From Dehalococcoidia bacterium (lineage in GTDB: Bacteria > Chloroflexota > Dehalococcoidia > Lucifugimonadales > UBA3495), in NCBI GenBank assembly GCA_963668505.2, contig CAXXWY010000026.1:621-64620 (forward strand): a stretch of DNA of 64,000 nucleotides, given 5' to 3'. Shown piece by piece: positions 1 to 59,291 of this stretch. The notes under the pieces were generated by a model, which worked only from the letters and a program-made list of their open reading frames with translations, was not told the DNA's origin and searched no databases. A program made the position numbers and the translations under genes. The number at the start of each line of letters is the position of its first letter. Position 1 is the first letter of the stretch.

Positions 1-822
1 TTCTGGGGCCATCAGCGACGGTAGAAGCCCTGCAGCCAAGCCAAGCAATTTTTGAGCATCGTCATCTTCCAAGGCTTCGAAATCGGCAACAATGTCGAAC
101 AAATCCCCCACGTATTTATCTGAGTCGGGAGACAGCCATCGCACTCCTTGGAGGGCCTTCAACATTTGCAGTGGGGCTGGAGGATTTAGCCCTTGGGTTG
201 CCATGGACCTAGCAACCCAGTAAGCTCCAGCCAAATCGTCTTGCGCTACAAGAGACCATAGGGTTGATCGCAGATCATCGACAGGTTGTCGCTTGGCTAT
301 AACTTTGTAGTTTTGAATCGTCTCATTGTCTTCTGCTGTCACCGCAATGTGTAGTTCAATGTCTCCGTCCTCTAAGGCATCATTGGCAATCTCAAAATGG
401 CCGTCCATGGACATTACTCCATGAACTTGCGCGCCACTAACCAGAACGGCTGTCAATGCCACAGTCGCTGCTGGATGAGTCGTTCTAGGGACAACGGTCA
501 CAGTGTCTAGTTCTTCAGTGAGACCGATGCTAACCTGCGTCTCGCCTTCTGGAAAATCGATGGGCATTCCTTGAAGGTGTAGGGATTCAAGACTTGCATC
601 CTCGCTTGGAGCGGAGGCCGTATGGTTGCTGGACGCACAAGTTTCAGCTTCTTCATCCGCGGTTTGGACGGAACAGTCTAGTATAGCCTCGCTGGATTCT
701 TGACCTTCCGGGCTCTCGCTAGTCAGAGCATTGTCTAATATCAGTTTGTGTTCGTTTATCATTAGAGCAACCGCGTCGTGTTCCTCTCTAAGGCGTCGCG
801 TTTCGCTGAAGGAGGACCCCAT
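1..822 (-). CDS. hypothetical protein; 3' end runs off the left edge and it may be continuous with 893..1696 through a frame change
   Basis: Manual minus-strand translation: the frame is open from 972 down to base 1, with the first ATG at 822 (MGSSFSETRRLREEHDAVALMINEHKLILD...LLGLAAGLLPSLMAPE-). Composition is realistic and acidic. No motif recognised. AT-richer than core genes. Confidence 0.45.
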   Translation of the reverse strand, partial: MGSSFSETRRLREEHDAVALMINEHKLILDNALTSESPEGQESSEAILDCSVQTADEEAETCASSNHTASAPSEDASLESLHLQGMPIDFPEGETQVSIGLTEELDTVTVVPRTTHPAATVALTAVLVSGAQVHGVMSMDGHFEIANDALEDGDIELHIAVTAEDNETIQNYKVIAKRQPVDDLRSTLWSLVAQDDLAGAYWVARSMATQGLNPPAPLQMLKALQGVRWLSPDSDKYVGDLFDIVADFEALEDDDAQKLLGLAAGLLPSLMAPE

Positions 823-5401: not shown

Positions 5402-5815
5402 CTAGCCTTCTCCCGCCCCGTTGCGGACCTCCTCCGGCAACAGCGCAAGAATCTGGGCAATAGCTTGCTGGATGCCCGGTATTAGAAGTTCCACATCTTC
5501 CCTGGTTCGCGCGGGCATATAGAAATTGTGGTGCAGGCTACTGGCGGCCTCAACGCTTGTGGGAAAGGCGGGGTCGTTAATTTCCCGGCCAATCCGCTGG
5601 TAGGCAAAGTTCATCAGGCTGCGATGGTCATATATTACCGGCCCTCGCCAGGCGTCGACGGCGTGGACGGCTTGACTTACGCTTCCCCACAACATCTCCC
5701 CGGCCTTACCCGGCTCGTCCTTTCGCAACGCATCCAGCGCATTGTCCATGTACTGACGGCAATGGTAGGCGTGGTTCCGGGCGGCTTCCGGGTCTCGGGC
5801 GGGCGCTGTTGTCAT
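5402..5815 (-). CDS. hypothetical helical protein (possibly PaREP1/HEPN-like)
   Basis: 137-aa ORF with realistic composition. The SLHHNFY segment and overall helical pattern resemble PaREP1-type proteins. The family call is weak. Confidence 0.5.
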   Translation of the reverse strand: MTTAPARDPEAARNHAYHCRQYMDNALDALRKDEPGKAGEMLWGSVSQAVHAVDAWRGPVIYDHRSLMNFAYQRIGREINDPAFPTSVEAASSLHHNFYMPARTREDVELLIPGIQQAIAQILALLPEEVRNGAGEG

Positions 5816-22548: not shown

Positions 22549-22651
22549 GGCCTAGCCAACCTGAAAGCCTCCGTTTGCGGCGAGAGCTTGGTGGGGCGAC
22601 ACGTATTCTAAGATTTTCGCAAAAACCCGGTCAACCTTGGGGCCGGAGACA

Positions 22652-22726
22652 GGGCGCCCACGAGGGACGCCCCTACGTCGCGCCCACCAACCACAGGGCA
22701 GGGCGCCCACGAGGGACGCCCCTACG
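22652..22726. repeat. two REP units GGGCGCCCACGAGGGACGCCCCTACG (22652-22677, 22701-22726)
   Basis: Exact 26-nt duplicates. Each can fold as a GGGCG/CGCCC hairpin. The same unit recurs at 26394, 26781 and 27101-27393. Confidence 0.85.
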
Positions 22727-22741
22727 GGCGGGGGGAAGGCT

Positions 22742-22858
22742 GAAAATTTTAGATTCGCTTTCATTTGCTCCCATTCCCTCCCATTTTGCGGGGTTGGCCG
22801 AGGTGCGGACGAAATTTTGATTTCCCCTCCATTTTCGCTCATATCCGCTCATTTCAGG
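22742..22858 (-). repeat. two copies of a ~50-bp phased iteron-like box (22742-22789, 22811-22858)
   Basis: Minus-strand reading: GCAAAATGGGAGGGAATGGGAGCAAATGAAAGCGAATCTAAAATTTTC and CCTGAAATGAGCGGATATGAGCGAAAATGGAGGGGAAATCAAAATTTC. Same architecture as the copies at 43186, 53306 and 53393. Confidence 0.8.
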
Positions 22859-23011
22859 GTGACGGCCTGCGGGCCGCGGTGCAGGGCCGCCGGTTGGCTG
22901 GGTATGCCTGGTGTTATAGTAATGAAACGTTACAGGGGTTGGCAACGGGCAACTGTCAGTAAATGGGGTTCGGACAGGGGGCGCCAGGAGTGACTAAAGG
23001 CAGGATGGGCA

Positions 23012-26000
23012 ATGACGGATAGCGGCGGGCCGGGCAATTGGCCGGGCGAGGGCGCGTCCAGGCACATCGACTACGACGACCCCAAGTATGAAAAGGCCGC
23101 GAGGGAAATACTACAGCGGCACGTCAGCTTTCAGGCCGAGGCGAACATCACCAGCGCGGTGCGGGACTTTCTCATTCTCACCGGCCTGGCCCGGAGCGAA
23201 GAAATAATCGAGGAAAACCCGCCTTCGGACGGCTCTCGTCGCGCCGTAGACCTGACTGCCCTGGACACCTTCATCGAGTTCAAGCGCAGGATCGGCACCG
23301 CCGCCAGCGGCGAACCCGACCCGGAAAACGTGCGGCAACTTGACGATTACCTGGCCCAGTCTGCGGCCCAGGGACGAGTACGCATGGGCGTCCTCACCGA
23401 CGGCAAGCGGTGGCTGCTGCGCTGGCCGGGAGCGGGGGAAGTACGTCTAACCCAACCCTACTTTTTTACCCTGGACAATGCGGAGAAGTGGCTCCCGCTA
23501 TACGAATGGCTGCGAGACACCGCCCTGGTGTCCCTGGAAGACGTCATCCCGGACAGGGACGGAATTGCGGCGCACTTCGGCCCCGACAGCCCGTCTTATC
23601 AACGGGACATCGCCGCCCTGAAGGACCTGTACCATCAGAACGCGGGACTGGAGACCATCCGGGTCAAGCGGCGGTTGTGGTACGACCTGCTGCGCACCGC
23701 CCTGGGTGAAGTCGCCTACAGCACCGAGGGGATGAGTCACCCGGTACGACGGGACACGGAGGAGATGGACGACCTGTTCGTCCGCCACACTTACCTTGGG
23801 GCGGTCACCGGCATGGTGGTGCAGGCGTCCTTCGGCATCGACATTCGACAACTGGCCGCCAACGACCCCGCCGACCTGCTCCAGGGGCGGAGGCTGACCC
23901 AAGATACGGGGCTTACAGGGGTGTTGGAATCAGACTTCTTCGCCTGGCCCAACGAGGTAGGCGGCGTACCGCTGCTGCAAACCCTGGCCCGCCGGGCGGC
24001 CCGGTTCAACTGGACCGAGACGCCGCCGGACACCGCCGCCGTTCTTTACCAGAGCGTCATCCCGCCGGAGGAGCGGCGTTCGCTGGGGGAATACTACACT
24101 CCCGCATGGCTGGCCCGGGCCATGGTCGGCGAATTGATAACCGACCCCCTGCGGCAGCGCGTCCTGGACCCGGCATGCGGCTCAGGAACATTTATAGCCG
24201 AAGCCGTAACCCATTTCATCCAGGCCTCCAAGAAGAGCGGCCTTCACCCCAAGCAGGTGTTGGACAGGCTGCGTATGTCCGTCACCGGCATCGACGTTCA
24301 CCCCGTCGCCGTCCACCTTGCCCGGTCTGCGTGGACACTGGCGGCCCGCCCGGCCATCAACGCCGCGGGCGCCGCCGGGTACAACGCATCTTTGTCCATC
24401 CCGGTGTACCTGGGAGACGCCCTGCAACTGCGTTATCGCACGGGAGACATGTTCGCCGAAAACGAAATCACCATCCGGACCAGCGACGACGAGAACACCG
24501 AATTGGTCTTTCCGGTCAGCCTGGTGGAGCGGGCCGAGGACTTCGACGCCCTGATGAGCGACGTTGCGGCCTATGTCGAGAGCGGCGAGGACCCATCCCT
24601 GGCATTGGCGGACAACCACATCAACGATCCCGGCGAGCGGGAGGTCATGGGAAAAACCATCGAGGCCTTGCAGCGTCTCCACCACCGGGGACGGGACCAC
24701 ATCTGGGCGTACTACACCCGCAACATGGTGCGGCCGGTAGTGTTGTCCCGCGCCAAGGTCGACGTGGTGATCGGAAACCCGCCCTGGATAAACTTCAACC
24801 AGACCGCTGACATCCTGAGGGACGCGTTGCAGGATATGAGCCGGAACCGCTACGGCATCTGGACCGGGGGCCGCTATGCCACCCACCAGGACGTGGCCGG
24901 GCTCTTCTTCGCCCGCAGCGTCGACCTGTACTTGAAAGATGGCGGCGTCATCGGCTTCGTCATGCCCCATAGCGCCTTGCAGTCCGGACAGCACTCCAAG
25001 TGGCGCACTGGCCAATGGCAGTCGCCGGCCAAGGGGCGGGGAAAGAGGAGAGCGCACGATTTCACATTGTCAGTCCAGTTCGATTACAAGACGGCCTGGG
25101 ACCTGGAGAAACTGGATCCCAACACCTTCTTCCCCATAGTTTCTTGCGTGGTGTTCGCACGCAGCACCGGACAAAGCGGAATCGCCGCGCCGCTGGCCGG
25201 AGTGGTAGAGAGGTGGCTGGGAAAAGCCGGGGCCGAAGACGTGAGGAGGCAGTTGACGGGTATTACCGACACTTCCATTACAGGCGATTCGCCTTACTAT
25301 AACCTTTCTCGTTTAGGAGCAATTCTTTATCCTCGCTGCTTGATTTTCGTCAATGAAACGGAAAACACCGCTATCGTACGGGCCGCGCAGACGGTCACCG
25401 TAAATCCACGACGAGGCAGCCAGGACAAAGCGCCGTGGAAGGACCTGGACCTGACCAAAATCACCGGCCAGACCATCGAGAGAGCGCACTTGTTTGATGT
25501 CCACTTGGGGGAAACGGTTGCACCCTACGTCACACTGGAACCCCTCAAGGCGCTGTTGCCCCTCAAGCAGGGCGACGCAGCCATACCCACTGATGACAAA
25601 GGCCCTGGCGGTATACGGCCAGGCGAACTGGAAAGACGGATGCGGAAACGCTGGAGGACCGTCAGCACTCTCTGGGACGAGCACAAAGCTCCTGTGAATA
25701 AGCTTGCTCTGTTGGGTCAGTTGAACTACTGGGGCCACTTACAGGCTCAACTGAAGTGGAGCCATCATCTCGGTGAGCGTGGGCCGCGGGTCGTATATAC
25801 CAAATCAGGTGAGCCAACCGCCGCTCTGATTCACGATGATCAGTCAATTATCGACCACAAACTCTTTTGGATACCCTGTAGGGATGTTGATGAAGCCAAC
25901 TACCTGTTGGCAATCATCAATAGCAATACGCTGTACCAAAGGGTAAAGCCGCTTATGCCCAAAGGCTTATTCGGAGCTCGAGATGTGCAAAAGCACCTGT

Positions 26001-26233
26001 GGAGGCTGCCCATCCCGGAGTTCGACCCGTCGCAGAAGTTGCACGTAACTATATCCAAGGCCGGGGCAACGGCGGCGGCAGGGGCGCAGGAGAAGTTGGA
26101 GGAACTCAGGAAGCAGGAGGGCGACAAGCTGACCGTGACCATAGCCCGGCGGGATTTGCGGGCGTGGCTGCGCACGTCGGAGGAGGGCAGGGCGGTGGAG
26201 GACGCGGTGGCGGAGTTGTTGGGGGGCGGGTAG
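23012..26233 (+). CDS. fused restriction endonuclease / N6-adenine DNA methyltransferase (type IIG/IIL, MmeI-like architecture)
   Basis: N-terminus has a PD-(D/E)xK-like VDLTALDTFIEFKRR followed by QLDDYL and VLTDGKRWLL. The middle has LGEYYTP, DPACGSGTF (motif I) and VIGNPPW (motif IV). About 450 aa of C-terminal presumed specificity region. Confidence 0.7.
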   Translation: MTDSGGPGNWPGEGASRHIDYDDPKYEKAAREILQRHVSFQAEANITSAVRDFLILTGLARSEEIIEENPPSDGSRRAVDLTALDTFIEFKRRIGTAASGEPDPENVRQLDDYLAQSAAQGRVRMGVLTDGKRWLLRWPGAGEVRLTQPYFFTLDNAEKWLPLYEWLRDTALVSLEDVIPDRDGIAAHFGPDSPSYQRDIAALKDLYHQNAGLETIRVKRRLWYDLLRTALGEVAYSTEGMSHPVRRDTEEMDDLFVRHTYLGAVTGMVVQASFGIDIRQLAANDPADLLQGRRLTQDTGLTGVLESDFFAWPNEVGGVPLLQTLARRAARFNWTETPPDTAAVLYQSVIPPEERRSLGEYYTPAWLARAMVGELITDPLRQRVLDPACGSGTFIAEAVTHFIQASKKSGLHPKQVLDRLRMSVTGIDVHPVAVHLARSAWTLAARPAINAAGAAGYNASLSIPVYLGDALQLRYRTGDMFAENEITIRTSDDENTELVFPVSLVERAEDFDALMSDVAAYVESGEDPSLALADNHINDPGEREVMGKTIEALQRLHHRGRDHIWAYYTRNMVRPVVLSRAKVDVVIGNPPWINFNQTADILRDALQDMSRNRYGIWTGGRYATHQDVAGLFFARSVDLYLKDGGVIGFVMPHSALQSGQHSKWRTGQWQSPAKGRGKRRAHDFTLSVQFDYKTAWDLEKLDPNTFFPIVSCVVFARSTGQSGIAAPLAGVVERWLGKAGAEDVRRQLTGITDTSITGDSPYYNLSRLGAILYPRCLIFVNETENTAIVRAAQTVTVNPRRGSQDKAPWKDLDLTKITGQTIERAHLFDVHLGETVAPYVTLEPLKALLPLKQGDAAIPTDDKGPGGIRPGELERRMRKRWRTVSTLWDEHKAPVNKLALLGQLNYWGHLQAQLKWSHHLGERGPRVVYTKSGEPTAALIHDDQSIIDHKLFWIPCRDVDEANYLLAIINSNTLYQRVKPLMPKGLFGARDVQKHLWRLPIPEFDPSQKLHVTISKAGATAAAGAQEKLEELRKQEGDKLTVTIARRDLRAWLRTSEEGRAVEDAVAELLGGG

Positions 26234-26393
26234 GCGGTCTTGCAGTAGAAGGTGATTCGTCCGATTGCAAGGTTTAGGCGCGGACGATTGGAACGTTACG
26301 GTGCGGCCAATTGCAAGGTTGCAGTCGCCTGAAACAACGCATGAGCAACGGTGGTGGTGGCCTTGGCGTTGATCTTGGCGGCCCAAAGGGGCA

Positions 26394-26419
26394 GGGCGCC
26401 CACGAGGGACGCCCCTACG
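26394..26419. repeat. REP unit GGGCGCCCACGAGGGACGCCCCTACG
   Basis: Identical to the units at 22652 and 22701. Confidence 0.85.
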
Positions 26420-26454
26420 GATGGGTTGGGCGCCCTGGGGTTTGGTGGAGGCGT

Positions 26455-27090
26455 CTAGGGAGTCTTTTCCGTTGGAACGATTCCAGAGCCAGTACGGGCA
26501 GGGTTTTCTCTGTCGAGTTCCCATTTCATGGGGTTATTGGCGATGTATTCCCTGGCTAGAGCGGTCTCGGACTCGTTCCTGATAATGCGTTCGTAGTAGT
26601 CCCGTTGCCACAGTCGTTTGTGGAACGGCGGCCAGTCCGTTTCCCGCACACCCTTGCCATAGTCCAGGGTGGTCAAGGATTTGTACGCGCCGACCACATC
26701 GCCCAAGGCAGGGGAAACGCCGGTGGTTGCCTTGGTGTCGTTTCGGGCGTCCCCGGTGGTCAGGACGTCCCCGGTAGTCAGGGCGCCCACTAGGGACGCC
26801 CCTACGGATGGGGTGTGTGGTTGGTGGATGAATATGACGCCGTGGACGTGGTTGGGCATCACCACGAATGCGTCCATTTCGACGGACGGGAACCGGTCGG
26901 GTATCCCATCCCACACCCTGCGAACCATCTTTCCTGCATCGTTCAGGAGCATCTCCCCATCAATCACGTCGCCGAACAGACATACCCTGCCTTGCGTAAC
27001 GATGGTGATGAAGTACGCGCCAGCCTGGGAGTAGTCGTAGCCCTTGAGCCGTATAGACCGGCGATGATGTGTGTCCGGTTTGTAGACCAT
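26455..27090 (-). CDS. REP-associated tyrosine transposase (RAYT, IS200/IS605-like Y1 HUH enzyme)
   Basis: HRRSIRLKGYDYSQAGAYFIT, VVMPNHVHGVI (HUH) and LWQRDYYERIIR (catalytic Tyr). Start moved to MVYKPD (ATG 27090), because the upstream ORF part is a translated REP array. Confidence 0.85.
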   Translation of the reverse strand: MVYKPDTHHRRSIRLKGYDYSQAGAYFITIVTQGRVCLFGDVIDGEMLLNDAGKMVRRVWDGIPDRFPSVEMDAFVVMPNHVHGVIFIHQPHTPSVGASLVGALTTGDVLTTGDARNDTKATTGVSPALGDVVGAYKSLTTLDYGKGVRETDWPPFHKRLWQRDYYERIIRNESETALAREYIANNPMKWELDRENPARTGSGIVPTEKTP

Positions 27091-27100
27091 TTGGTTACCC

Positions 27101-27393
27101 GTAGGGGCGCCTCTTGTGGGCGCCCGGAACGATGTCAAGCGCAGGGCGCCCACAAGGGACGCCCCTACGTCCCGCCCACCAAACACGGGGCAGGGCGCCC
27201 ACCAACCACAGGGCAGGGCGCCCACAAGGGACGCCCCTACGTCCCGCCCACCAAACACGGGGCAGGGCGCCCACCAACCGCAGGGCAGGGCGCCCACGAG
27301 GGAGCCCCTACGTCCCGCCCACCAAACACGGGGCAGGGCGCCCACCAACCGCAGGGCAGGGCGCCCACAAGAGGCGCCCCTACGTGGCGCGGG
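27101..27393. repeat. BIME-like REP cluster: ~3.4 tandem copies of a 72-bp unit bracketed by a perfect 25-bp inverted repeat
   Basis: Units at 27141-27212, 27213-27284, 27285-27355 (71 bp) and 27356-~27393. GTAGGGGCGCCTCTTGTGGGCGCCC (27101-27125) is the exact reverse complement of 27360-27384. Confidence 0.9.
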
Positions 27394-29617
27394 CCGGGGC
27401 GGGGAGGCCGGATTGGTCGCGGGTGACGGAGATGGCGCCACGGACTCCCTCCAGCTTGGAGAACAGCTTGCCCAGTTGGTCCACGCCGGTGGTGTGCAGG
27501 GTCAAGTCCATGGTCACGGTGCCGTCGGGGTGTTCGTCGGTAATCACCCCGGCGATGTTGACGTGCTCTTCAGAGACCAGGACGGTGACGTCCCTCAACA
27601 GCCCAACCCGGTCGTAAGCCCGAATCCTTACCCTGACCGGATGCAGCTCTTTGGCCGTGCCCCATTCCACCTTCACCACCCGTTCCTGCTCGTCCTCGTT
27701 GCGGATGCCGGGACAGTCCTTCTTGTGCACGGTGACTCCCCTGGCCCTGGTGATGAAGCCCAGGATGTCGTCGCCGGGAATCGGGTTGCAGCACCGGCCG
27801 ATGCGGACCAGCAGGTCGCCTACCCCCAGCACCGAAATGCCCGAACTGGGGCTGGACAATGGGAGGTTGGGTCTGACCAACTGGGTCTGTTCCTGGGAGT
27901 CCTGGCGCGCCTGGGCCAGCCGGTGGGCCACCTGGCTCTCGGTGAGGACGCCGGATCCCAGGTTGGCCAGTAGCTCGTCCATGTCGTCGTACTTGCACAG
28001 GGCCAGGATTTCGGCGTCGTCGAAGCGCTGGTTGAACCGCTTGATCTCCCGTCGCAGCAATTCCCGGCCCCGCCGGATGTTGGCGCTGCGGGCCTGCCGC
28101 CGGAACCAGTGGCGGACCTTCTGCCGGGCGCTGGCGGAGGCCACGTATCCCCGGCTGGGGTTGAGCCAGTCCAGGCTGGGGCCCCTCTCCGACTTGGAGG
28201 CCAGCACTTCCACGGTGTCGCCGTTCTGGAGAGGCGAGTCCAGGGACACCAGGCGGCCGTTGACCTTGGCGCCGATGCAGCGGTGGCCGAGTTCGGTGTG
28301 AATCTTGTAGGCGAAGTCCACCGGCGTGGATCCCACGGTAAGCTCCACGATTTCTCCCTTGGGGGTGTAGACGAACACCTGGTCGTGGAAGATGTCCTGC
28401 TTGACCGACTCGATGAACTCGTCGGTCCCGGCGACTTCACGCTGCCAATCCAGTAGCTGGCGCAGCCAGGTCATCTTTTCCTCGAAACGCAGGTCTCCGG
28501 AGTTTCCTTCCTTGTAGCGCCAGTGGGCCGCCACGCCGTACTCGGATATCTGGTGCATCTCTTGGGTCTTGACCTGGACTTCCAGGGGATTGCCGCCCTC
28601 GCAGATAACAGTGGTGTGCAGGGCCTGGTACATGTTTTCCTTGGGATTGGCGATATAGTCGTCGAACTGGCCCGGAATGGGATGCCACAGTTGGTGGACC
28701 ACTCCCAGGGTCTTGTAGCAGTCGCCCGGGGTGTCCACCAGGACGCGCAGGGCGTACAGGTCGTAGATGTCCCGCAGTTCCTGACCTTGTTCCGCGTATT
28801 TCTGCATCTTGCGGTGGGTGCTGTATATGCCCTTGGGGCGGCCTACGACCTCGCCTTCCAGCCCCAGACGGTCCATGGCCTCGCGGAGGATGCCGGCGAC
28901 TTTTTCTACGTATTCCTCCCGTTCCCCACGCTTGGCGGCCAGCATCCTGGAGATTTCGTGGTAGCGCTCCTCGTCCAGGTGGCGGAAGGCCATGTCGTCC
29001 AGCCGCCACTTGATGTCCCAGATGCCCAGGCGGTGGGCCAGCGGCGAATAGATGTCCAGAGTCTCCTGGGCTATTCGCTTCCGCTTCTCCGGCGGCAGAG
29101 CGTCGAGGGTGTGCATGTTGTGCATGCGGTCGGCCAGCTTGATGAGCACCACCCGGACGTCCTCGGCCATGGACACCAGCATCTTGCGCAGGCTTTCGGC
29201 CTGCAGGTTGTCCTGCTCTTCGGCCCCGTCTCCGGCGGTCTTGGGCTCGTAGAAGCGGGCGTCCATGCGGGCCAGCTTGGTTACGCCGTCAACGAGCTTG
29301 GCCGTTTCCGGTCCGAACTGGGCATCAACCTGTTCCAGGGTTACGCCGCAGTCTTCGACCACGTCGTGAAGCAGGGCGGCGATGATGGTGTGACCGTCGA
29401 GGCGGAGGTCGCTGAGGAAAAGGGCGGCTTCCAGAGGATGGGCGATGTAGGGCTCGCCGGACTTGCGCGTCTGGCCCTGGTGGCATTGGTCGGCAAAATC
29501 GTACGCCTGCCCGATGAGGTCCGTCGTTTCCTTGGGCAGGTAGGAAGAGACCCGCTCGGTGAGCTTGTCGACGCTGTCCGCCATTACCCCGTTCCGGGAA
29601 GTCTTGGTGTTAGTCAA
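27380..29617 (-). CDS. relA: bifunctional (p)ppGpp synthetase/hydrolase RelA/SpoT
   Basis: HD domain (HPLEAALFL...LHDVVED), a RelA_SpoT synthetase core, and TGS and ACT C-terminal domains. TTG at 29617 or ATG at 29584. Confidence 0.95.
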   Translation of the reverse strand: MTNTKTSRNGVMADSVDKLTERVSSYLPKETTDLIGQAYDFADQCHQGQTRKSGEPYIAHPLEAALFLSDLRLDGHTIIAALLHDVVEDCGVTLEQVDAQFGPETAKLVDGVTKLARMDARFYEPKTAGDGAEEQDNLQAESLRKMLVSMAEDVRVVLIKLADRMHNMHTLDALPPEKRKRIAQETLDIYSPLAHRLGIWDIKWRLDDMAFRHLDEERYHEISRMLAAKRGEREEYVEKVAGILREAMDRLGLEGEVVGRPKGIYSTHRKMQKYAEQGQELRDIYDLYALRVLVDTPGDCYKTLGVVHQLWHPIPGQFDDYIANPKENMYQALHTTVICEGGNPLEVQVKTQEMHQISEYGVAAHWRYKEGNSGDLRFEEKMTWLRQLLDWQREVAGTDEFIESVKQDIFHDQVFVYTPKGEIVELTVGSTPVDFAYKIHTELGHRCIGAKVNGRLVSLDSPLQNGDTVEVLASKSERGPSLDWLNPSRGYVASASARQKVRHWFRRQARSANIRRGRELLRREIKRFNQRFDDAEILALCKYDDMDELLANLGSGVLTESQVAHRLAQARQDSQEQTQLVRPNLPLSSPSSGISVLGVGDLLVRIGRCCNPIPGDDILGFITRARGVTVHKKDCPGIRNEDEQERVVKVEWGTAKELHPVRVRIRAYDRVGLLRDVTVLVSEEHVNIAGVITDEHPDGTVTMDLTLHTTGVDQLGKLFSKLEGVRGAISVTRDQSGLPAPARAT

Positions 29618-42563: not shown

Positions 42564-43235
42564 TCATGTCCCGTGGGAAACAAGCCCCGTCAAGCCTCGC
42601 GCTGGCTCAAACACTTGCGCTCCCATATCTAACAGGTTCTCGTTGGCCGGGCTGTCAAGCGTGTGCAGAGGCTTGCCTGATTCAATGAGCTTGCGGGCGA
42701 ATTCCTCGGTCCTGCCGCCGGGGGCGGCGTGGGCTATGAAGACCCGGCTGGCCAGCGACGCCACCAGGTCGTTGCGCCGGGCTGCGAGTTGCGCCGTCGG
42801 GCGTCGGACAGCGGCTGGGAAGGGCGATAGGACCAGCAGGCGGCCGTTGTCCAGGGCGGGGCGCCAGCCGCGTGGGATGCGCATGTTGTCGACGCCTCGG
42901 GCCGGGCAGATGACGACGGGCTGATTGCCCCGCAGCAGCAGGCGCAGGCATTCGCGTTCCATGGGCGTCTGGAAGCCGCCGGTGACTGGAACGCCGGAGT
43001 CGCGCATGGCCCTGGCAATGTCGTAGGTCTTCAGGATGAGGTCGCCGGGGCAGCGATTGGAGCAGAACAGGGCCGTTAGCGGCTCGTCGAGCAGGCGCAG
43101 GTTGCCCAGATCGGCCGTCCTGGGCGGCAGATAAGCCGTGCTCCCGGTTTTTTCAGCCGCATGGCAGACCGGAGGGCCGGCGCCGGAAAATTTTAGATTC
43201 CCTACCATTTCATCCCATTTCCTACCATTTGGCAA
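42564..43235 (-). CDS. short DprA/Smf-like (SLOG superfamily Rossmann) protein
   Basis: LFCSNRCPGDLILKTYDIARAMRDSGVPVTGGFQTPMERECLRLLLRG..QPVVICPARG...LLVLSPFP...PT...AARRNDLVASLASRVFIAHAAPGGRT parallels the DprA core. The only in-frame ATGs (43235, 43208) lie inside the iteron-like box. Confidence 0.6.
   Translation of the reverse strand: MPNGRKWDEMVGNLKFSGAGPPVCHAAEKTGSTAYLPPRTADLGNLRLLDEPLTALFCSNRCPGDLILKTYDIARAMRDSGVPVTGGFQTPMERECLRLLLRGNQPVVICPARGVDNMRIPRGWRPALDNGRLLVLSPFPAAVRRPTAQLAARRNDLVASLASRVFIAHAAPGGRTEEFARKLIESGKPLHTLDSPANENLLDMGAQVFEPARGLTGLVSHGT
43186..43233 (-). repeat. iteron-like box, copy 3
   Basis: Minus strand: GCCAAATGGTAGGAAATGGGATGAAATGGTAGGGAATCTAAAATTTTC. Confidence 0.8.
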
Positions 43236-43286
43236 GCGTTGGGGGCCGGTTGGACTTGGCTTTGGCCCCGGAAGGGGACTGATGCT

Positions 43287-43388
43287 TTACATGGTAGGGG
43301 GTTGGGCGGGATTTTGAAAGCGGCAAATGTCAGTGGGGGTGTCCAACCTAGGCGATAGGTTCATGTCAAGGAGGAGCGTCGGCTTCAT
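43287..43388 (-). pseudogene. 5' remnant of a DUF5615 (Mut7-C/PIN-like) toxin gene
   Basis: The ATG overlaps the DUF433 stop (ATGA). The translation MKPTLLLDMNLSPRL matches the conserved DUF5615 N-terminus, then becomes unrelated and stops after 33 codons. Confidence 0.55.
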
Positions 43389-43615
43389 GGCGTGGAGAGG
43401 GGAACCTCACGTTCTTCAAGCCTCCAAGCGGCGTAGGCCAGGGATTGGTCGATGTCCTCCTGCTCAAGATACGGGTAAGCTTGGAGTATCTCTGCATGTG
43501 AGCGACCGGACGCCAGCAGGCCGACCACCGTCCCGACCGTTACGCGCATGCCGCGAACACACGCCTTACCCCCCATGACAGCGGGATCGATAGTAATTCT
43601 GTCGAGTGATTTCAT
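43385..43615 (-). CDS. DUF433 domain protein (antitoxin-like HTH)
   Basis: ITIDPAVMGGKACVRGMRVTV...ILQAYPYLEQEDIDQSLAYA is the canonical DUF433 pattern. Confidence 0.9.
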   Translation of the reverse strand: MKSLDRITIDPAVMGGKACVRGMRVTVGTVVGLLASGRSHAEILQAYPYLEQEDIDQSLAYAAWRLEEREVPLSTP

Positions 43616-43678
43616 TGTCTATCTCCTCCCATGCTCAGGCCTTCAAAACTTGCGGCCGTGCGCGCCGGTGTTCAAGGT

Positions 43679-43912
43679 CTAGCGGTCCCACGATTCCTTC
43701 TCTTCTTTCAGGTAGGCCGCTACGTCCTCCGCCGTCTTGAAGAGGCGATGCCCCCGCGCCTCAGCCAAGACGGCGACTGCGGACCGTCGTTCGGTAGACG
43801 AGGAGGGCGTCACCACCACGTCCACCGTCTGCCCCGCTTCCAATTCCGGGCTGGCGGACTCCACCCTGCCGCCGGGTTGTGCCGTTGTTCTGATATGCAA
43901 TTTCTTTTGCAT
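43679..43912 (-). CDS. small hypothetical protein (77 aa)
   Basis: The pattern ...GRVESASPELEAGQTVDVVV...GHRLFKTAEDVAAYLKEEKESWDR resembles a small protein family common in cyanobacterial and Chloroflexi TA-rich regions. Function unknown. Confidence 0.6.
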   Translation of the reverse strand: MQKKLHIRTTAQPGGRVESASPELEAGQTVDVVVTPSSSTERRSAVAVLAEARGHRLFKTAEDVAAYLKEEKESWDR

Positions 43913-44003
43913 TGTCAGTGCCCCCTTAACGTTCGACTATCCAGCCTCATGCGGCGCCGGGTGTTCGTGGTTAGTGGTGATGTTTGGCTGCTATTCAACG
44001 AGG

Positions 44004-47000
44004 TTAGAGGTGGAATTTTGCGATGATTTCTTCGAGTCCTGTTTTCGTTTTAGCGTCCAAGGGTGTTTGAAGCAGTTGGTCTATAACGGGTTTCGACCCG
44101 TGCCACATATAATGTAAGTCATCGGCTTCGCCAAGGCGGATTAGAAGTTTCGCCAATGCCTCTGGGTGCTTACCTGGTATGGCAGAGTCAGTGAGTCGAA
44201 GACTAGGCATAAGTCGTTGCAGGGGCTGAACAGGCATCTTTATTGCCAATTCAACCGCCTCCGGGTAGACCGCAGTTAGACTGAAAGTCCACTCGATCAT
44301 CGCCTCTGTTTCCTCTGCGTCCAGCGGCGCTGGTATGCCGTCGAGACGATTTTCCCAATATCCCCTCAGCCAGGTATTCCACCATTCCTTTTGCATGGGT
44401 TCGTCCAAGTACTGCAGGAAGTGCCGGATTTCCGTCGAAAATTTCCGCCGGACTTCTTGGCCGCTACTTGCCAGTAGTTTGGTAATCCACTGGTCGGTGG
44501 GACAGGAGACGAACACGGTGAGCATCCAAGTGTATCTTGTGATGAATCTGCATCTGGTTTGTGGGGTCATCCTGTCGTTGATGTGTTCGACTGCTTGCAA
44601 GAACGGCTCCTTCAGAAGTTCAGCAGCCCTAGCAGTGAAGTTGGACGAGTAAGTTATGCCATTCCATGCGCTCTCGAATTCTTCGTGGCTGTGATCCAAC
44701 AGAGGTATCAGGTTCAGCTTGCTCCACTCTTCATCTACAAAGGTTAGAAAGGGGATGTTTGATACGAGAATCACCCTGGCGAGTTTGCCGGGTAATTCCT
44801 GGTTTGCCATCATCCTTGCCAGCACATCCTGGTAGTCGTCTCCAAGCGTCGTGGGCGGCTGTTCCTGTTGTTGCCTCCATAAGGCAATACTTTGCAGCCA
44901 GAATTGAGCGAGGCGGCCTGAGGGACTGTTGATGGCTTCGGTGTACCAATCGACTTCTTCTTCAACCCCTCCAACGTATCGAGTCATTTGGCTTGGCTCG
45001 ACTTTTATTGCGTAGTCATGCAAATTGCCGGCGATGGTGTTGGCTCGGGCGATAAGTTCCGAAGTTTCTGGACCTGTAACTTTTTTGACAACTTCACATA
45101 GAGCGTTGGTTAGTTCATGAACGTGATCTTGGTATAGGTTATCGTCAGAAAGACGTTCCAGAACTTGACGAACGCAGTCTTGGTCTAACTCGGCAGCCCC
45201 CCAAGCTCTAATGAGGAATGGCCACAGGTCTACATCCCACAGACCTGCGCTCGCCATTTCGCTTGCCAGTTCAAGACCCCACTCGACATTTTTTTGTGCG
45301 GCCTCCCCAATAGCAGTTAGTAGCCCCGCTCTGTTGACAGGGTCGGAAGGCTGTGTCGATTGATACTCGACTAATTCCGCCAGCCATTCTCTTGCTGGCT
45401 TTCCCAATAATTCCTCAACCGTCCACGGACTCCGAACTCTCGCCCAAGTCTCCGTCCAAAACAGCATATCCGGACGTTCACTTTGGGAAAAATCCGGGTA
45501 CTGGACCAATATGGTCTCTAGGGCATGTTTAGCGAGTGGGCAATCAGGGGCAGCGTCGTTCAGCCATTTGAGCCATTCGAATTTGTGGAATGCTGTGAGG
45601 CTTTCTTTATCTGGATGGTCCTTTCTAGGCCATTGGTAGCTTAGCACTGATTCGATAACCCTTTCCCTCTGCTCCAAGGATGCTTCGGGATATACACTGG
45701 CGACAGCCCTGTAGATTTCATGCTTGGCAGGGAGTTCGTTCAAGTCGTAGTGTTCCAATAGCCAGGCGATTTTCTCGTCGGCGGAGAGATCATTCCGGCT
45801 CGGAAGGATGTGTACTGCCAGCCGGCGCAGCAGAGCTGATTTAGAGCGGCTGTAGCGTTCCGACCGTAGCTTGGCCGCATCGGGTTGGTTGGCAACCAGC
45901 CATTCAAGACAATCTCGTGCAATGTCGATAAGCGCGTCTATTCCTCTGGGGTGCCTGTCTTGCGCATGGGGTTCAATGGCAGATCGCCGGAAAGTGTCGG
46001 AATCTAGAAGACGTTCGCCTTCCCAAGCCATTATCAGAGAGTGACGCTCTTCCAACCGCCAGACGGTTTTATCGATCAGTGACTCGGCTATTTCCGGTAA
46101 ATTGGGTTTCAGGCATTGCTCCCACAAGGTTCGGATTTGATAGGTAGAGAGGTCCGCGTTGCGCCTGGCAAATCGCCGGCCAGGATGGCGACAGATCGCC
46201 GTCATTGTGTCGTAGATTTGCAACACGTTGACCAGTAATCCTGGGTTTGCACAATTTTCGGCGATTTTCCCCAACAACACATCATTGAAATTAGGCGGAG
46301 TAGCGCTGATCAGGAGGTGTATCCACCGGGAAAGGGTCTTCGCATCTGCTAGAGGTTCGACATTTACGAGCATCCGTTGCGCAATCATGTTCCACAAATC
46401 GACATTGAGTCTTGAGCCGTGCCGCCATATAACTGAAAACAGCACGTCAGGTTTCTCGATGGCGAAACGACTTGGCAACCAGCCAGCCAGCCACTTCTCT
46501 CCTTCTGTAAGGTCGCCGTAGGAAAACAGGGCATCCAGGTAACCGCGAGTGTCCAGCCAATCAATCCATTCCGGTGATTTCGCGGCATCTGTGAAGAAAC
46601 GGGTATATACGGGGTTTGTGAGGGCGTGTTCGATTACACCGGCGGATTCTTCTTCCAAAGGCGGCGGCCCACTTGCTATTTTGGTGATTTCCTGGCGCCA
46701 ACCCAGTGTGCCGCGCCGCCTGTAATCAGCAAGACTTGATATTGCCCGATCCAGGCCGGTGTAGTCGCCGCCCACTTGTGGAAACGGTATGGGTTCAATG
46801 CCCAAATTACGCCAACGCTCCTGCTCGTCGCTCAGGCCGCCAATGAGGGCGTAGCGGCGGTCGTCTTCACCCTTGGGCAGGGATGGAGTCAAATAAGTCA
46901 TGATGGTGTCATTGTGGCTGTAGCCTACGAACAGCAAGGTGTGCTCGGTGAATAGGTCAACCAGAAAGCGCCTCGCCCAGCCGTCGGCTTCTGTTAGGTA

Positions 47001-47510
47001 AGCACGTCCAAAGTCCTGGCTGGTAAGCACCATTTCCTCAGGTTGGCTAACTGACCCATGAATATGGACAATACCCTTAAATCGCCTGCCATAGGGGAGC
47101 GCCGGGGCCATGAACACGCTTGTTGTGGTTTCGAACAACTCTTGGGCGGCTTGATCAAGCAGTAGGTCGAAATTAGTTGTGACGATGCGGACATCTTCGG
47201 GTATAGTGAACAAACGCAGTAAGCTACGGTGAAGATCCGTAGGTTCGGGATTGTTCATTTGCAACACGTCCGCAGCGCGTCGATGCACGTCCGTGCCAGC
47301 TACTTTCAAGCGGTCCAAAAATCGGTCTTCTGTCTCCCCCTCACCGATTGCCTGGCCGGTCCCCACGGCAATTTGTTGGGCTAGGCCTGAGAAGTCTGGC
47401 ATGTTTGCCGGGGCACCCATGGAGACGCCTGCTCCGGCAAAAATCACCAGCCGTCCATCACGGAGGGCGTTCAGCAACGGATCCGGGAAATTAACGCCTT
47501 TGATTATCAT
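44004..47510 (-). CDS. SIR2-domain protein with a large helical C-terminal region (defense-associated sirtuin, DSR1/DSR2-like architecture)
   Basis: The N-terminal ~280 aa carry RLVIFAGAGVS, VRIVTTNFD, GIVHIHGS and LLFVGYSHND (SIR2_2 pattern with catalytic Asn and His). The remaining ~880 aa are W/L/E-rich and helical, with no motif recognised. AT-rich (48% in the 60-nt spot count). Confidence 0.85.
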   Translation of the reverse strand: MIIKGVNFPDPLLNALRDGRLVIFAGAGVSMGAPANMPDFSGLAQQIAVGTGQAIGEGETEDRFLDRLKVAGTDVHRRAADVLQMNNPEPTDLHRSLLRLFTIPEDVRIVTTNFDLLLDQAAQELFETTTSVFMAPALPYGRRFKGIVHIHGSVSQPEEMVLTSQDFGRAYLTEADGWARRFLVDLFTEHTLLFVGYSHNDTIMTYLTPSLPKGEDDRRYALIGGLSDEQERWRNLGIEPIPFPQVGGDYTGLDRAISSLADYRRRGTLGWRQEITKIASGPPPLEEESAGVIEHALTNPVYTRFFTDAAKSPEWIDWLDTRGYLDALFSYGDLTEGEKWLAGWLPSRFAIEKPDVLFSVIWRHGSRLNVDLWNMIAQRMLVNVEPLADAKTLSRWIHLLISATPPNFNDVLLGKIAENCANPGLLVNVLQIYDTMTAICRHPGRRFARRNADLSTYQIRTLWEQCLKPNLPEIAESLIDKTVWRLEERHSLIMAWEGERLLDSDTFRRSAIEPHAQDRHPRGIDALIDIARDCLEWLVANQPDAAKLRSERYSRSKSALLRRLAVHILPSRNDLSADEKIAWLLEHYDLNELPAKHEIYRAVASVYPEASLEQRERVIESVLSYQWPRKDHPDKESLTAFHKFEWLKWLNDAAPDCPLAKHALETILVQYPDFSQSERPDMLFWTETWARVRSPWTVEELLGKPAREWLAELVEYQSTQPSDPVNRAGLLTAIGEAAQKNVEWGLELASEMASAGLWDVDLWPFLIRAWGAAELDQDCVRQVLERLSDDNLYQDHVHELTNALCEVVKKVTGPETSELIARANTIAGNLHDYAIKVEPSQMTRYVGGVEEEVDWYTEAINSPSGRLAQFWLQSIALWRQQQEQPPTTLGDDYQDVLARMMANQELPGKLARVILVSNIPFLTFVDEEWSKLNLIPLLDHSHEEFESAWNGITYSSNFTARAAELLKEPFLQAVEHINDRMTPQTRCRFITRYTWMLTVFVSCPTDQWITKLLASSGQEVRRKFSTEIRHFLQYLDEPMQKEWWNTWLRGYWENRLDGIPAPLDAEETEAMIEWTFSLTAVYPEAVELAIKMPVQPLQRLMPSLRLTDSAIPGKHPEALAKLLIRLGEADDLHYMWHGSKPVIDQLLQTPLDAKTKTGLEEIIAKFHL

Positions 47511-48099
47511 ATACAGCTACCGCCTCTTAGCAGTTCACCCCTCCCGCTGAACACCCAGTTGCCCCCCACCTTTCCAGGCATGCTTTCCACCGCCGTACAC
47601 TTGCTCCAGTCCGTAATACGGTCACCTCCCGTTCGATTGCCGTTTGTCCTTCCGTAGGCATGCGCCCGTTGAAGGCGCCACCGCCTCCCGCACGTGCCAC
47701 CCTGCCGCGTTATATTTCTCTTATGCGGCTAATTGGTCTCTTGGCATATTCTAATAGAGGCCTTTTGTGGAAACAATCGAAGATGTGCTGGCCGATGGGA
47801 GTGGGGCCTGGCACCATGTGTCCTATGACTTCACAACGTAGCCCGTTCCCTCTAGCGCAGGGGGTTCCCGGTTCTTGAGCGACCCATTGGTGCCATCGGC
47901 AATCTTGTCCGCCAGGGGGACCCTTTCCCAGAGGTCTTCTACAGGGCAGTATCCAGCCGAGGGTAGCGTGTCCTTGTCCATCCCGTTCAAGGCCCCACCA
48001 GGAGCCCCGGGCTTCGCGGTTTACGGAGTTGACCGGGGAGTTGCCAATAGAGGAAATTTAGAGACCGCAGCCAGTCGAAGGCCAAGAAATGAGCGGCAA

Positions 48100-48190
48100 T
48101 GGCGGAGAGGGCGGGATTCGAACCCGCGAGAAGCTGTTGACCTCTACGCGATTTCCAGTCGCGCCCGTTCGGCCGCTCCGGCACCTCTCC
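48100..48190 (-). tRNA. tRNA-Ser (anticodon GGA), CCA encoded
   Basis: The reverse complement folds as a cloverleaf. Acceptor stem GGAGAGG/CCTCTCC, anticodon stem CGCGA/TCGCG with loop CTGGAAA, a long variable arm, T arm GCGGG-TTCGAAT-CCCGC, discriminator G plus CCA. Confidence 0.95.
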
Positions 48191-53241: not shown

Positions 53242-53305
53242 ACGAGACTTTCAAGCATTGCTTTAATGGGGCGGGAGCCATTAAGGGTCAATTCGGTCAT
53301 CGGGC

Positions 53306-53443
53306 GAACAATTTTATTTCCCCACCATTTCCGCTCATTTTCGCCCATTTGGGGGGGTGCTCGGTCGAGGGCCAGGGCCGGCGAGGCGGGGGGAGAAATT
53401 TTTAGTTTCCCTTCCATTTCCTCTCATTTCGTCCCATTTTGCC
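53306..53443 (-). repeat. two copies of the iteron-like box (53306-53353, 53393-53443)
   Basis: Minus strand: CCCAAATGGGCGAAAATGAGCGGAAATGGTGGGGAAATAAAATTGTTC and GGCAAAATGGGACGAAATGAGAGGAAATGGAAGGGAAACTAAAAATTTCTC. Confidence 0.8.
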
Positions 53444-53740
53444 GGGCCGTCGCCGGGCGGGAGTCGTTTCGCAGTTGGAACGAACAAGGGACGAATCGGG
53501 CATGGGGCCGAAATCCTCCAGGTCCTCTCTTAAGAAATAGCCGAGGGCCAATTGCCGGTGATAAACAATTAAGGCGTTACCGGCCCTTGGTATGGGGATA
53601 ATGTGGTTTGAGTGTAGGTATTGGCGTTCGGGCCTGTCAAGCGAGGTGTGTCATCGCCGGGGGGGCGTTTGCTTCTAGGGTTTAGCCTATGTAACCGTAG
53701 GTGCCGCAGGCCCTAAAAGAAAACGGAACCGTGAAAGCGC

Positions 53741-56700: not shown

Positions 56701-57376
56701 GATTGTCGATGGTATAGTTCCAGGGCGATCCGGCGGTGTCGGACGTGATGAACTCGGCGGTCCTGGTGGAAGAGGTTCCGGTTGCGCCCGATGCAGCAGA
56801 CGTCGTCTGGCTCAAGTCAACGAATAGAATCGCCTGCCGATTGTCCCAGGTGGTGTTACGCGTCGATGCAGTGTGTTTTGCATAACTAAGAGCCCCGTTC
56901 CTAGTGTCTTCGGTAAAGTTGTTTCGGACCACCACCACGATTTCGTTGGGCCCGCTGCCCTCAAGATATTCGTGGACGGTGAACCTGAGTTCATGGATGG
57001 CCCGGTATAGTGTCTCTGTGCCTGAAACAGTCTCCACCGTCGGTGTCAAGGACACAAAGGTCGCCCGCACGACGACCGTGGAGTCAGAATCCAATGCGTT
57101 AAATATCTGTTCCTCCAATGAGGGGGCGACATACAACTCCGGGGGGCCGCCGTGATGGTCGTACTCGCTTTCCGAGTCTGGGGTGGGTGAATCCGTTGCT
57201 GCCGGGGTTGGCTGCGAATCAGGTTGAACTGTTGTAGGTGTTGGCTCAGGACTGGGTTGCTGCGTCGCGCCGGGGTTTGGCTGGGCGGAGTTGCACGCCG
57301 ATAGAAAAGCTATGGCTAGGCACAGCGTCAGGACAGTGGCCCCAAGGCGTCTCATTAGGCTGGGGGTTGCGGTCAT
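53741..57376 (-). CDS. secreted lipoprotein with a C-terminal gluzincin-type metallopeptidase domain
   Basis: Lipobox LSAC after a hydrophobic signal. Pro/Thr-rich linkers. Five LPW[IVL]ADGI[TG] repeats. YHEVAHYY (HExxH) followed by WIAEGGADF. Confidence 0.75.
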   Translation of the reverse strand: MTATPSLMRRLGATVLTLCLAIAFLSACNSAQPNPGATQQPSPEPTPTTVQPDSQPTPAATDSPTPDSESEYDHHGGPPELYVAPSLEEQIFNALDSDSTVVVRATFVSLTPTVETVSGTETLYRAIHELRFTVHEYLEGSGPNEIVVVVRNNFTEDTRNGALSYAKHTASTRNTTWDNRQAILFVDLSQTTSAASGATGTSSTRTAEFITSDTAGSPWNYTIDNLSRAWLPAQNASGGASAASPSTEFVTNGAKTPPPTITLAALKSQIAALKAELKAGEGTAGFKDCVSSRILRERTVRAHDLAPYQMAKTLASGLAAGAEVFRYDHHYREPQYNRWWLRGADAGLFEAVIIDNDKSSLNGYYAGLFTERPLPGGSYSVDYIAQHHYYFPCNFKPTDSYSAWTVTVTAPSGTVHEALFDPVAIGSAVGVDASNGVLKPKAFTFDDVSTELQSLKWESGSATLTLSAPTSLSGHTLDFITLDGTVIHSLDWSAATVSGNTLTWSVASQPWQAGDKLMLRLRQDGPAPTPTPTATPTVAPTQVSTLTPTPMPTLPPAPTPEPTPTPTPTATPTPAPTVTPTPVPTSMGVTLSGVVRHTAAGVAVSAWSQYDQEYWVEAEPDGAFEIQAPRGGYVLQIWATKDGDGWHSVGWYDGEGGTVTERGQALEVTLDGEDVGGIEVSLTPTPDPAPALRERAERHLSDIIPWFDDPPDEYHVSAGSEILIIYLQNPEAGDFLARLPWVADGIGEVEVGTIDLLGGLTYIDRVDYLFPIDAALARRVFALPWIADGITVNERWAIAHSSALGHRDVELALRITGFPWYADAVTVSEYRVISSFRNLVDADLALAQQVAALPWLADGITITEELGLYFLRELAGTDLALGQQVAALPWVADGITEVDSGVLGLLWSDPEMARTWLDRVADYESMARMAVLGYVKSTLNNESMYGDFLNATFVQRSAVSLPLAGDINLWAVQSEPFSPGEDLTAMIEDAVRATEGFMGEPFPATDVILIVPIGGDYWAGEHWPGFFYVTRYEPHPISRETIYHEVAHYYFDFGPRWIAEGGADFMRLYTTDRAGLVSLEDQRSDLRRDVEAGCFKQGIRNIHELNEREFQDPRAPLECNYVLGAYFLLELYEAVGEDALSATMRALYLEFHDQDHTVVVEGEERNFFKDENELRRVEEVFYQTLLENTPPERVDAFLEVYRRLHGGPYAD

Positions 57377-57389
57377 GTCGTTGTTCTCC

Positions 57390-59039: not shown

Positions 59040-59221
59040 GCAATCACATCATGGGTTTCAAGCCAGGGGTCCGGTTGAGTTCCGGTTGCCGCTCTTGGGG
59101 TCACGGTAACAACAACCGCCGCGGGAGTCAATTTTCGCGACGGAAACCTTTTAACAACTCCCCGGAGGCGTCACTTCGGGACAATGGGCCGAGTTTTTGC
59201 AGCCCAGGCCCCTGCCCCTGG

Positions 59222-59243
59222 ATTCCGGTTCGGGGGCCGGAAT
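59222..59243. repeat. REP-type hairpin ATTCCGG-N8-CCGGAAT
   Basis: A 7-bp stem read directly. Same family as 61556-61575. Confidence 0.6.
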
Positions 59244-59291
59244 AACGGTTGTGCAAGGGCCTCCGGCCGCGGGCATCGCCAGTTGGATTCC

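Follow-up and report, generated by a model that had tools for sequence, protein, structure and literature searches.

A dispersed intergenic element of uncultured Dehalococcoidia that couples a sigma70-type module to phased-decamer boxes: a possible mobile promoter-leader cassette

The DNA considered here is a stretch of 64,000 nucleotides from a Dehalococcoidia bacterium, referred to as the window. It contains five gap-free copies of a 48-bp box, c1 to c5, all of which are on the minus strand and which are distributed over three sites (Table 1). At the first site, the tandem boxes c2 and c1 are followed by an amidohydrolase gene (Amidohydro_2). At the second, c3 abuts or overlaps the 5' end of an ORF with a weak DprA-like match, and at the third, c5 and c4 precede the gene for a Trp-halogenase-like FAD enzyme, whose ATG is 64 nt beyond the 3' end of c4. 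These gene assignments agree with those of an earlier note on the window, which had also quoted the five copies and whose quoted sequences were verified. Its count is borne out by a pattern search for AATGR-N4-AAATGR-N4-AAATGR with two or fewer mismatches: this returned exactly five matches, 5/5 on the minus strand, against a chance expectation of 0.03 on average and a maximum of 1 in dinucleotide-preserving shuffles. A profile HMM search of the whole window found no sixth box.

The boxes are built from phased direct repeats. In c2, these are the decamers GAAATGAGCG, GATATGAGCG and AAAATGGAGG, which are followed by GGAAATCAAAATTTC. The description of each copy as carrying three phased AAATGR repeats holds for the five matches when two mismatches are allowed, but c1 and c2 have one deviant repeat each (GGAATG, ATATGA). 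A TAAAAT hexamer had been assigned to every copy and is found only in c1, c3 and c4, as c2 has CAAAAT and c5 has TAAAAA. Similarly, the boxes were thought always to be 5' of minus-strand genes. Their positions are as described, but orientation is informative only at the tandem sites of c3 and c4/c5, because c1 and c2 are in a divergent intergenic region where co-orientation with the 3' neighbor is automatic. The variable positions of the box are 4-nt blocks and not codon third positions. The signal is therefore non-coding and, as had been proposed, resides at the DNA or RNA level.

Table 1. Positions of the boxes, promoter-like sequences and recurrent small ORFs discussed in the text
Feature	Position	Strand	Description
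Box c1	22742-22790	-	Profile HMM E = 1.3e-8; second unit of two-box tandem array, 66-nt period
Box c2	22810-22858	-	Profile HMM E = 4.2e-10
Box c3	43185-43232	-	Profile HMM E = 5.9e-12
Box c4	53305-53353	-	Profile HMM E = 1.1e-11; 88-nt period with c5
Box c5	53393-53441	-	Profile HMM E = 8.9e-12
Module of c2/c1 composite	22911..22962	-	CTGACAG-N7-TTGCCA (22945-22940), N18, TACTAT (22921-22916)
Variable leader	22859..22910	-	About 55 nt, from predicted transcription start to box c2; module-box distance 57 nt
Degenerate module upstream of c3	43290..43345	-	CTGACA-N..-CTTTCAA-N17-TACCAT, seen in the sequence
Sigma70-like promoter	53611..53640	-	TTGACA-N18-TACACT, 163 nt upstream of c5; not of the conserved module type
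Proximal amidohydrolase promoter	22605..22634	-	TTGACC-N18-TAGAAT; downstream of boxes, outside the repeat
108-110-aa ORF family (MNLNEIRRRIDALR...)	L017 1974-2306, L034 5711-6037, L030 7399-7752, L010 5031-5315, L054-L056		

The box is found well beyond the window. A strict scan for AAATGR-N4-AAATGR-N4-AAATGG-NRGGGAA, covering bacteria and archaea with one genome per species, produced 36 loci where approximately 0.03 are expected by chance. Thirty-three of these are in 11 Dehalococcoidia/SAR202/'Chloroflexi' MAGs, and a single 4-Mb chromosome holds up to about 12. The remaining three (Prevotellaceae, Phaeodactylibacter and Peribacteria) were set aside as unrelated because they are long, simple tandem arrays of 10-12-mers that have no A/T core. 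Viral contigs contain no match to the strict box pattern, and a phage origin of the box was rejected on this result. The earlier note had suggested a profile scan beyond the window. A profile built from the copies found here, run on the window together with the 33 loci, identifies 57 boxes. Same-strand arrays of two to four boxes, with a period of 66-128 nt, are common.

The box consensus reads cCA-AAATGG-nnGg-AAATGr-nnGg-AAATGG-nrGGGAA-a(t/c)(t/c)-AAAA(a/t)(t/a)T(c/t)C. Information content peaks at the three AAATG motifs and at GGGAA, and the spacing of the AAATGR repeats is exactly 10 bp in 54 of the 57 copies. Each box thus consists of three or four phased GGAAATGR decamers, followed by GGGAA and an A/T run. 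The TAAAAT-like sequence resembling a -10 is not conserved, being CAAAAAAAAG in the CBDFLG copies and AAAAAC elsewhere. Variant boxes with AAATGTCCG units are also present. At L011 (~5727-5775) and L005 (~750-800, minus strand), three decamers of the form AAAT(T)GTCCG replace AAATGGNGG; these variants keep a GGGAAATC-A(n)-TCC tail, and AAATG and the tail alone are invariant. Decamers within one box are alike (2.83 vs 2.41 of 5 positions, p = 0.007), an effect so weak that concerted evolution of the decamers inside a box was rejected.

A larger composite contains the box as its downstream half. The view that the box is a self-contained unit did not survive, as a sigma70-like module is positioned 28-196 nt upstream, on the same strand, in the loci examined. 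The module reads CTGACAC-N7-(CCC)TTGCCA(ACCC)-N18-TA(a/c)CAT(AATA) or, written with its conserved flanks, CTGACAC-N7-CCCTTGCCA-N18-TA(a/c)CAT. Its distance to the first box is mostly 55-65 nt within the above range, in at least 10 box lineages, and it is present in OY282565, CBDFLG, S8_378, OZ253548, OZ219860, CATOSP, VXTR01 and MPMM01. When the window and the box loci were searched with a module profile, 31/31 significant matches were followed by a box on the same strand, a coupling that was measured on loci picked for containing boxes; the box behind the module at L010 4838 is weak (E = 0.016). Both the sequence and the length of the leader that separates the -10 from the box are variable. 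The complete composite is approximately 130-400 bp long, is intergenic and has so far been found solely in uncultured Dehalococcoidia. It comprises the sigma70-type module, a mostly C/A-rich leader of about 30-200 nt and one to four tandem boxes.

In the window, the module takes the form TTGCCA-18-TACTAT and elsewhere TTGCCA-18-TAACAT or TAGCAT, each of which agrees with a sigma70-type sequence. The module of the c2/c1 composite is recognized by the module HMM (E = 4.4e-9) and by the sigma70 scan (9/12 matches), and the composite at 22747-22969 aligns with L029, which is from another species, at 69% identity over 233 nt. The module match upstream of c3 is weak (HMM E = 0.83 at 43334-43316) and does not pass the sigma70 scan. 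The c5/c4 region has no module, and the same is true of L013, L015, L018, L035 and L036. A few module-like 20-mers with no accompanying box turned up in an independent metagenome scan, one of them upstream of an integrase-like gene, so the module is not exclusive to the element. Separately, module and box contain reverse-complementary sequences: the -10 region reads CCCTACCAT and the last unit of the box ATGGTAGGG (43296-43304 vs 43199-43207; also in L003 and L006). An inverted CCATTTCC is located just upstream of CTGACAC in many modules. These inverted motifs may be extra sites for the same putative binding protein, or they may be coincidence.

It is quite unlikely that the box is itself the promoter, with ATGRNN of the middle repeat serving as a -35-like element, a spacer of 17-18 bp, a TAAAAT-like -10, and the upstream repeats acting as an UP element or as activator sites in the manner of a pho box. 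Here, the last repeat is 9-10 bp upstream of the A/T core, and the pho box is placed likewise relative to the -10. Good sigma70 scores are also obtained at L009 (ATGACA-17-TAAAAT), L032, L035 and L026, and a 108-aa ORF in CBDFLG begins just 33 nt past the box. A sigma70-type promoter has -35 and -10 hexamers separated by 16-18 bp, and the -10 has A at position 2 and T at position 6. However, 0/5 window boxes pass the sigma70 scan and the box exceeds the PWM cut-off in only 4/38 regions. Furthermore, the strongest conservation (AAATG three times, GGGAA) falls in the would-be spacer and not in the hexamers, the supposed -10 is unconserved as described above, arrays of three to four boxes would imply three to four tandem promoters, and a better, conserved promoter is present upstream.

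Canonical TTGACA-N17/18-TAnnnT promoters, which are readily recognized in these genomes, occur upstream of boxes and, at many loci, between the box and the gene. Where one separates the box from the start codon, the box is not the proximal promoter of that gene. The amidohydrolase has such a proximal promoter, and its TTGACC-N18-TAGAAT sequence is conserved in L051, L052 and L053, of which L052 is without the composite. As many genes keep their own promoter after the box, any contribution of the composite to target expression is hypothetical.

The placement of the composites relative to genes was assessed with crude gene calls based on codon usage, and paralogous regions were collapsed to 26 clusters before counting. 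Among these clusters, 12 tandem regions are co-oriented with the gene and 1 is anti-oriented (p = 0.003), while 11 regions are divergent and only 1 is convergent; the background at the same loci is 42 divergent vs 46 convergent (p = 0.006). The element is therefore polar and confined to gene 5' regions, which extends across genomes what the earlier note had claimed for the window. Nearly all box copies are intergenic, with the start codon 33-560 nt from the box 3' end. Apart from a recurrent 110-aa ORF, the downstream genes are unrelated and include those for a Y-family polymerase, luciferase-like monooxygenases, an SDR, a cyclase, a DDE transposase, an MFS transporter, a TPP enzyme and a tRNA; they have no common function, and a shared regulon was rejected on this ground. 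The element also generates spurious ORFs, such as L017 1327-1848 and the extended ORF at L009, and annotation pipelines should for this reason mask it.

Iterons are tandem repeats of 17-22 bp which form one origin per replicon and are located beside an initiator (rep) gene. The box had been suggested to be an iteron, and as a replication or partition site of an integrated plasmid or phage it would have phased direct repeats beside an A/T-rich stretch, a likeness that is superficial only. Its units are 10 bp and not 17-22 bp, it occurs at dozens of loci, with at least 3 in 64 kb and at least 10 in single genomes, and its neighbors are metabolic (amidohydrolase, halogenase and similar) with no rep or par genes among them. 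Combined with the empty viral contigs, this leaves the iteron reading a negligible probability; copy number and gene context effectively refute it.

An RNA-level element is also improbable. The element would then be a small RNA gene that has its own promoter, or else a folded leader or riboswitch in which the box is the conserved part. Its position downstream of a conserved promoter, in the sense strand and with strict polarity, is consistent with transcription into RNA, and its purine-rich GGA and SD-like motifs could bind a protein or the ribosome. However, the Rfam search that had been proposed for the window matched no family at gathering or E-value thresholds and found tRNAs alone. The predicted transcripts fold no better than shuffles (z of +1.6 to -2.0) and each adopts a different fold, and with Rfam empty and the z-scores inconsistent, structured RNA was rejected. 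A GGGAAA/TTTCCC hairpin shows apparent compensatory changes, yet there is no copy-specific pairing or covariation: in a chimera-permutation test, the energy of GGGAAA-arm pairing with the 3' flank is -8.22 kcal/mol observed vs -8.16 permuted. As permuted chimeras pair equally, the pairing is attributed to generic G-rich/C-rich composition. In addition, no terminator follows the window boxes, and the strict 10-nt period suits the DNA helix better.

Other identities for the box were tried and rejected. The three box ATGs cover all three frames and one is in frame with the downstream ORF at two loci, which is no more than chance as frames and stops are unconserved and the variable blocks are 4 nt long; a leader peptide or three-frame ATG cassette was set aside on the same evidence. 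CRISPR arrays are characterized by near-identical repeats, unique spacers and cas genes or a leader. Here, divergence between boxes of the same array is 15-30%, paralogous loci conserve the 'spacers', and there are no cas genes. The ToxI-like arrays of type III toxin-antitoxin systems consist of abutting, near-identical repeats of 34-45 nt followed by a terminator and the toxin gene. The boxes, in contrast, have a period of 66-128 nt, are divergent, lack a terminator and mostly have no adjacent small ORF.

Composites are present in some relatives and absent from others. At the halogenase locus, neither box nor module is found in five syntenic relatives (80-92% aa identity, ~104 kb). The window and these relatives are homologous exactly up to 53243, the halogenase ATG, and again from 59284, so that the native halogenase promoter has been replaced by a 6.0-kb window-specific segment (53244-59283), with c5 and c4 at its gene-proximal edge. 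Two large proteins, paralogues of 1211 and 549 aa with no Pfam match, are encoded by this segment, which has internal 105-nt tandem repeats at 54680-55054. Reading it as a transposon with the boxes at one end was rejected, as the far end has no box or inverted copy and no transposase is encoded. Box c3 is in DNA that is missing from the fetched relatives, beyond tRNA-Ser (GGA) (48096-48190), where relatives carry a phage-type integrase. In the window, this region (42564-47510) encodes a SIR2_2 + DUF4020 protein (1168 aa) and the DprA-like gene and is probably a tRNA-linked defence island.

The c1/c2 composite is at the same place in relatives of 97% and 95% aa identity. One relative, at 89%, lacks it along with the adjacent RM and RAYT genes. 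The composite is located in a variable hotspot (22566-27392) between RelA/SpoT (27380-29617) and the amidohydrolase. The hotspot holds a type IIG-like RM gene (23012-26233) and a RAYT-like gene in the window, an AAA_14/DUF4143 gene and a remnant of the RM start in L051, and a RidA gene in L052.

Such positions bring to mind a recombination or cassette-boundary site, in which the phased repeats and A/T core would be recombinase binding and crossover sites that move adjacent genes. Two of the three window sites are at the gene-proximal edge of window-specific segments and the third is in the tRNA-Ser-linked region where relatives carry the integrase. Nevertheless, this reading is very improbable: no recombinase is consistently adjacent, L051 keeps the composite despite its replaced neighboring RM gene, and the 6-kb segment has no partner site at its other end.

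At the c1/c2 site, identity between relatives is highest on the -35 side of the module (88-92% in L051 and L053), followed by 78-86% for the proximal promoter, 60-85% for the boxes and 48-67% for the leader, which is lowest. Four-fold degenerate sites, used as the neutral baseline, are 70-77% identical in the amidohydrolase and 62% in the RM gene. Against the neutral expectation, and for this one orthologous site, the boxes are at 82% vs 72% (p = 0.018) and 64% vs 62% (p = 0.35). This near-neutral divergence is evidence against strong selection on single copies at the host level, and any selection on single boxes is at most weak.

Within genomes, copies are 83-97% identical over 200-600 nt and deletion derivatives exist. 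No target-site duplication was identified among relatives that differ by whole segments and offer no clean empty site. No mobilising enzyme associated with the composites was identified either, the only recurrent ORF being one of 110 aa. In CBDFLG, a 650-bp unit flanked by inverted repeats was considered and rejected, as the repeat brackets the composite in L034 only and sister copies carry it inverted or elsewhere; since it is absent around these sister copies, the 22-nt inverted repeat of L034 is assigned to a separate REP-like family.

Near-neutral decay and the pattern of presence and absence keep a purely selfish dispersed repeat as the main rival explanation, although we regard it as unlikely. 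It would be MITE-like or carried by recombination and would have no function for the neighboring gene, its motifs reflecting recent spread or its own propagation needs, such as sites for a mobilising protein. Consistent with this, the element sits in inserted or variable segments, within-genome copies reach 94-97% identity and include deletion derivatives, and decaying units are visible in L053. Like a MITE, it is small, non-coding and present in many copies per genome. However, MITEs are flanked by terminal inverted repeats, and no inverted repeats of at least 10 nt bracket the window composites; the repeat in L034 belongs elsewhere, and no associated transposase was identified. MITEs and REPs usually occur in either orientation and prefer gene 3' ends, whereas the element shows strong polarity and a 5' bias (12:1 and 11:1). 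Finally, its best-conserved part is a complete sigma70-type promoter.

A multi-copy ORF of 108-110 aa directly follows the composite in four species (Table 1). Three of the three loci that were fetched via the protein alone have two to three boxes just upstream and, where enough sequence is available, also the module. The ORF family is confined to the clade and the composite precedes every copy listed. The 110-aa protein has 13 homologues, none of which is named; it has no Pfam, PHROG or PDB match, its AlphaFold model is unusable (pLDDT 52), and there is no copy in the window. By association only, its product is a candidate box-binding protein. A further proposal, which we consider doubtful at best, is that composite and ORF form an autonomous unit. 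Here, the small protein would bind the decamers, and the promoter-box cassette would spread to new genes and would thereby either mobilise itself or bring horizontally acquired genes for catabolism and defence under a single regulon specific to the clade. On this view, the window's solo copies would be non-autonomous derivatives.

The element has features in common with several known systems. Putative mobile promoters (PMPs) were reportedly introduced by Matus-Garcia, Nijveen and van Passel in 2012. PMPs are defined as non-coding sequences that share 80% identity or more across 50 nt or longer and are located upstream of non-paralogous genes in one genome (summarized in PMC3575422). The likeness is that homologous non-coding sequence precedes unrelated genes, is multi-copy, is shared by species and has no match to Rfam or known IS; the difference is that PMPs are defined by identity only, whereas the element here is a module, a leader and a box array of phased decamers. 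In OY282565 and CBDFLG, copies are 83-97% identical over at least 200 nt and have unrelated downstream genes, which is within the PMP definition. The window's own copies are below its threshold, at 73-78% identity over 67 nt.

Correia elements and ERIC have terminal inverted repeats and are found in both orientations, whereas the present element is strictly polar and no inverted repeats were found around the window composites. Correia elements (of Neisseria) and ERIC are small dispersed repeats that carry promoters, and the likeness lies in short intergenic repeats able to give outward promoters and change the expression of neighbors (PMC3575422). REP/REPIN sequences with their RAYTs are likewise abundant, short intergenic repeats, but the box is non-palindromic, polar and at gene 5' ends and is a separate repeat family. 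The window has a REP-like family of its own, GGGCGCCCAC(G/A)AGGGACGCCCCTAC, with eight copies (22646-22732, 26388-27390), two of which are directly 3' of c1. The gene beside it at 26455-27090 (minus strand) resembles a REP-associated tyrosine transposase (NCBIfam 57 bits vs a cut-off of 80), and together these look like a REP/RAYT system. Additional intergenic repeats, GTCATTCTGAGCAAAGCGAAGAATC, GTTCGACAAGCTCACCAGGAACGG and GGGAGAGGGTTAGGGTGAGGGCG, are found near composites (L004, L012, L016, L018, L025, L031, L033 and L034), and these families give rise to spurious inverted repeats and ORFs.

Pneumococcal BOX elements are composed of boxA, boxB repeated n times and boxC, are found near gene 5' ends and have stable predicted RNA folds. 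They share with the present element a modular structure, a variable number of tandem internal units and a gene 5' location, but the sequences are unrelated and the element here has no stable predicted RNA fold. Direct-repeat operators of the OmpR/PhoB type (pho boxes) are positioned at or upstream of the -35. As expected of an operator of the response-regulator type, the box has AAATGR direct repeats at 10-bp spacing, and the likeness to pho-box, ParR and omega-type sites extends to direct repeats of 6-7 nt with a period of 10-11 bp near a promoter. The difference is that the array here starts at approximately +30 to +200 and is on a dispersed repeat. As far as checked, which covers only a small part of the literature, the element is undescribed.

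Taken together, the reading that we favor, at about even confidence, is that of a dispersed and probably mobile promoter-leader cassette, a composite of module, variable leader and boxes. Of the options that the earlier note had offered, a mobile promoter module comes closest, with the correction that the box itself is most likely not the promoter. In the proposed cassette, RNA polymerase would start at the module, whose promoter activity is predicted from its sequence, and would read through the box or boxes into whichever gene follows. The cassette itself would be gained and lost together with variable DNA. The boxes, located in the initially transcribed region, would offer an array of binding sites to a sequence-specific protein, which would modulate read-through. 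This protein may act on DNA as an operator or roadblock, where the phased A-tract DNA is probably bent, or it may act on an unstructured, purine-rich leader RNA. The box has four or five in-phase A-tracts, an arrangement that predicts a DNA bend. Exact 10-bp phasing, these A-tracts and strict polarity favor an array of protein sites over an RNA structure, and the box array most likely binds a protein.

Dehalococcoidia, SAR202 among them, are abundant, and hardly any have been cultured. If the proposed cassette is real, it would provide a native promoter for genetic tools and a sequence tag for recently rearranged regions of MAGs, and its phased AAATGR array could be used as DNA or RNA bait for the regulator. 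If the element is merely selfish, it is still a new repeat family. To our knowledge, nothing is known of how the expanded, horizontally acquired catabolic genes of Dehalococcoidia are regulated. Here, a cassette that is shared by 11 or more species and sits at the borders of inserted DNA would, if this reading is true, be a concrete way to wire acquired genes into expression.
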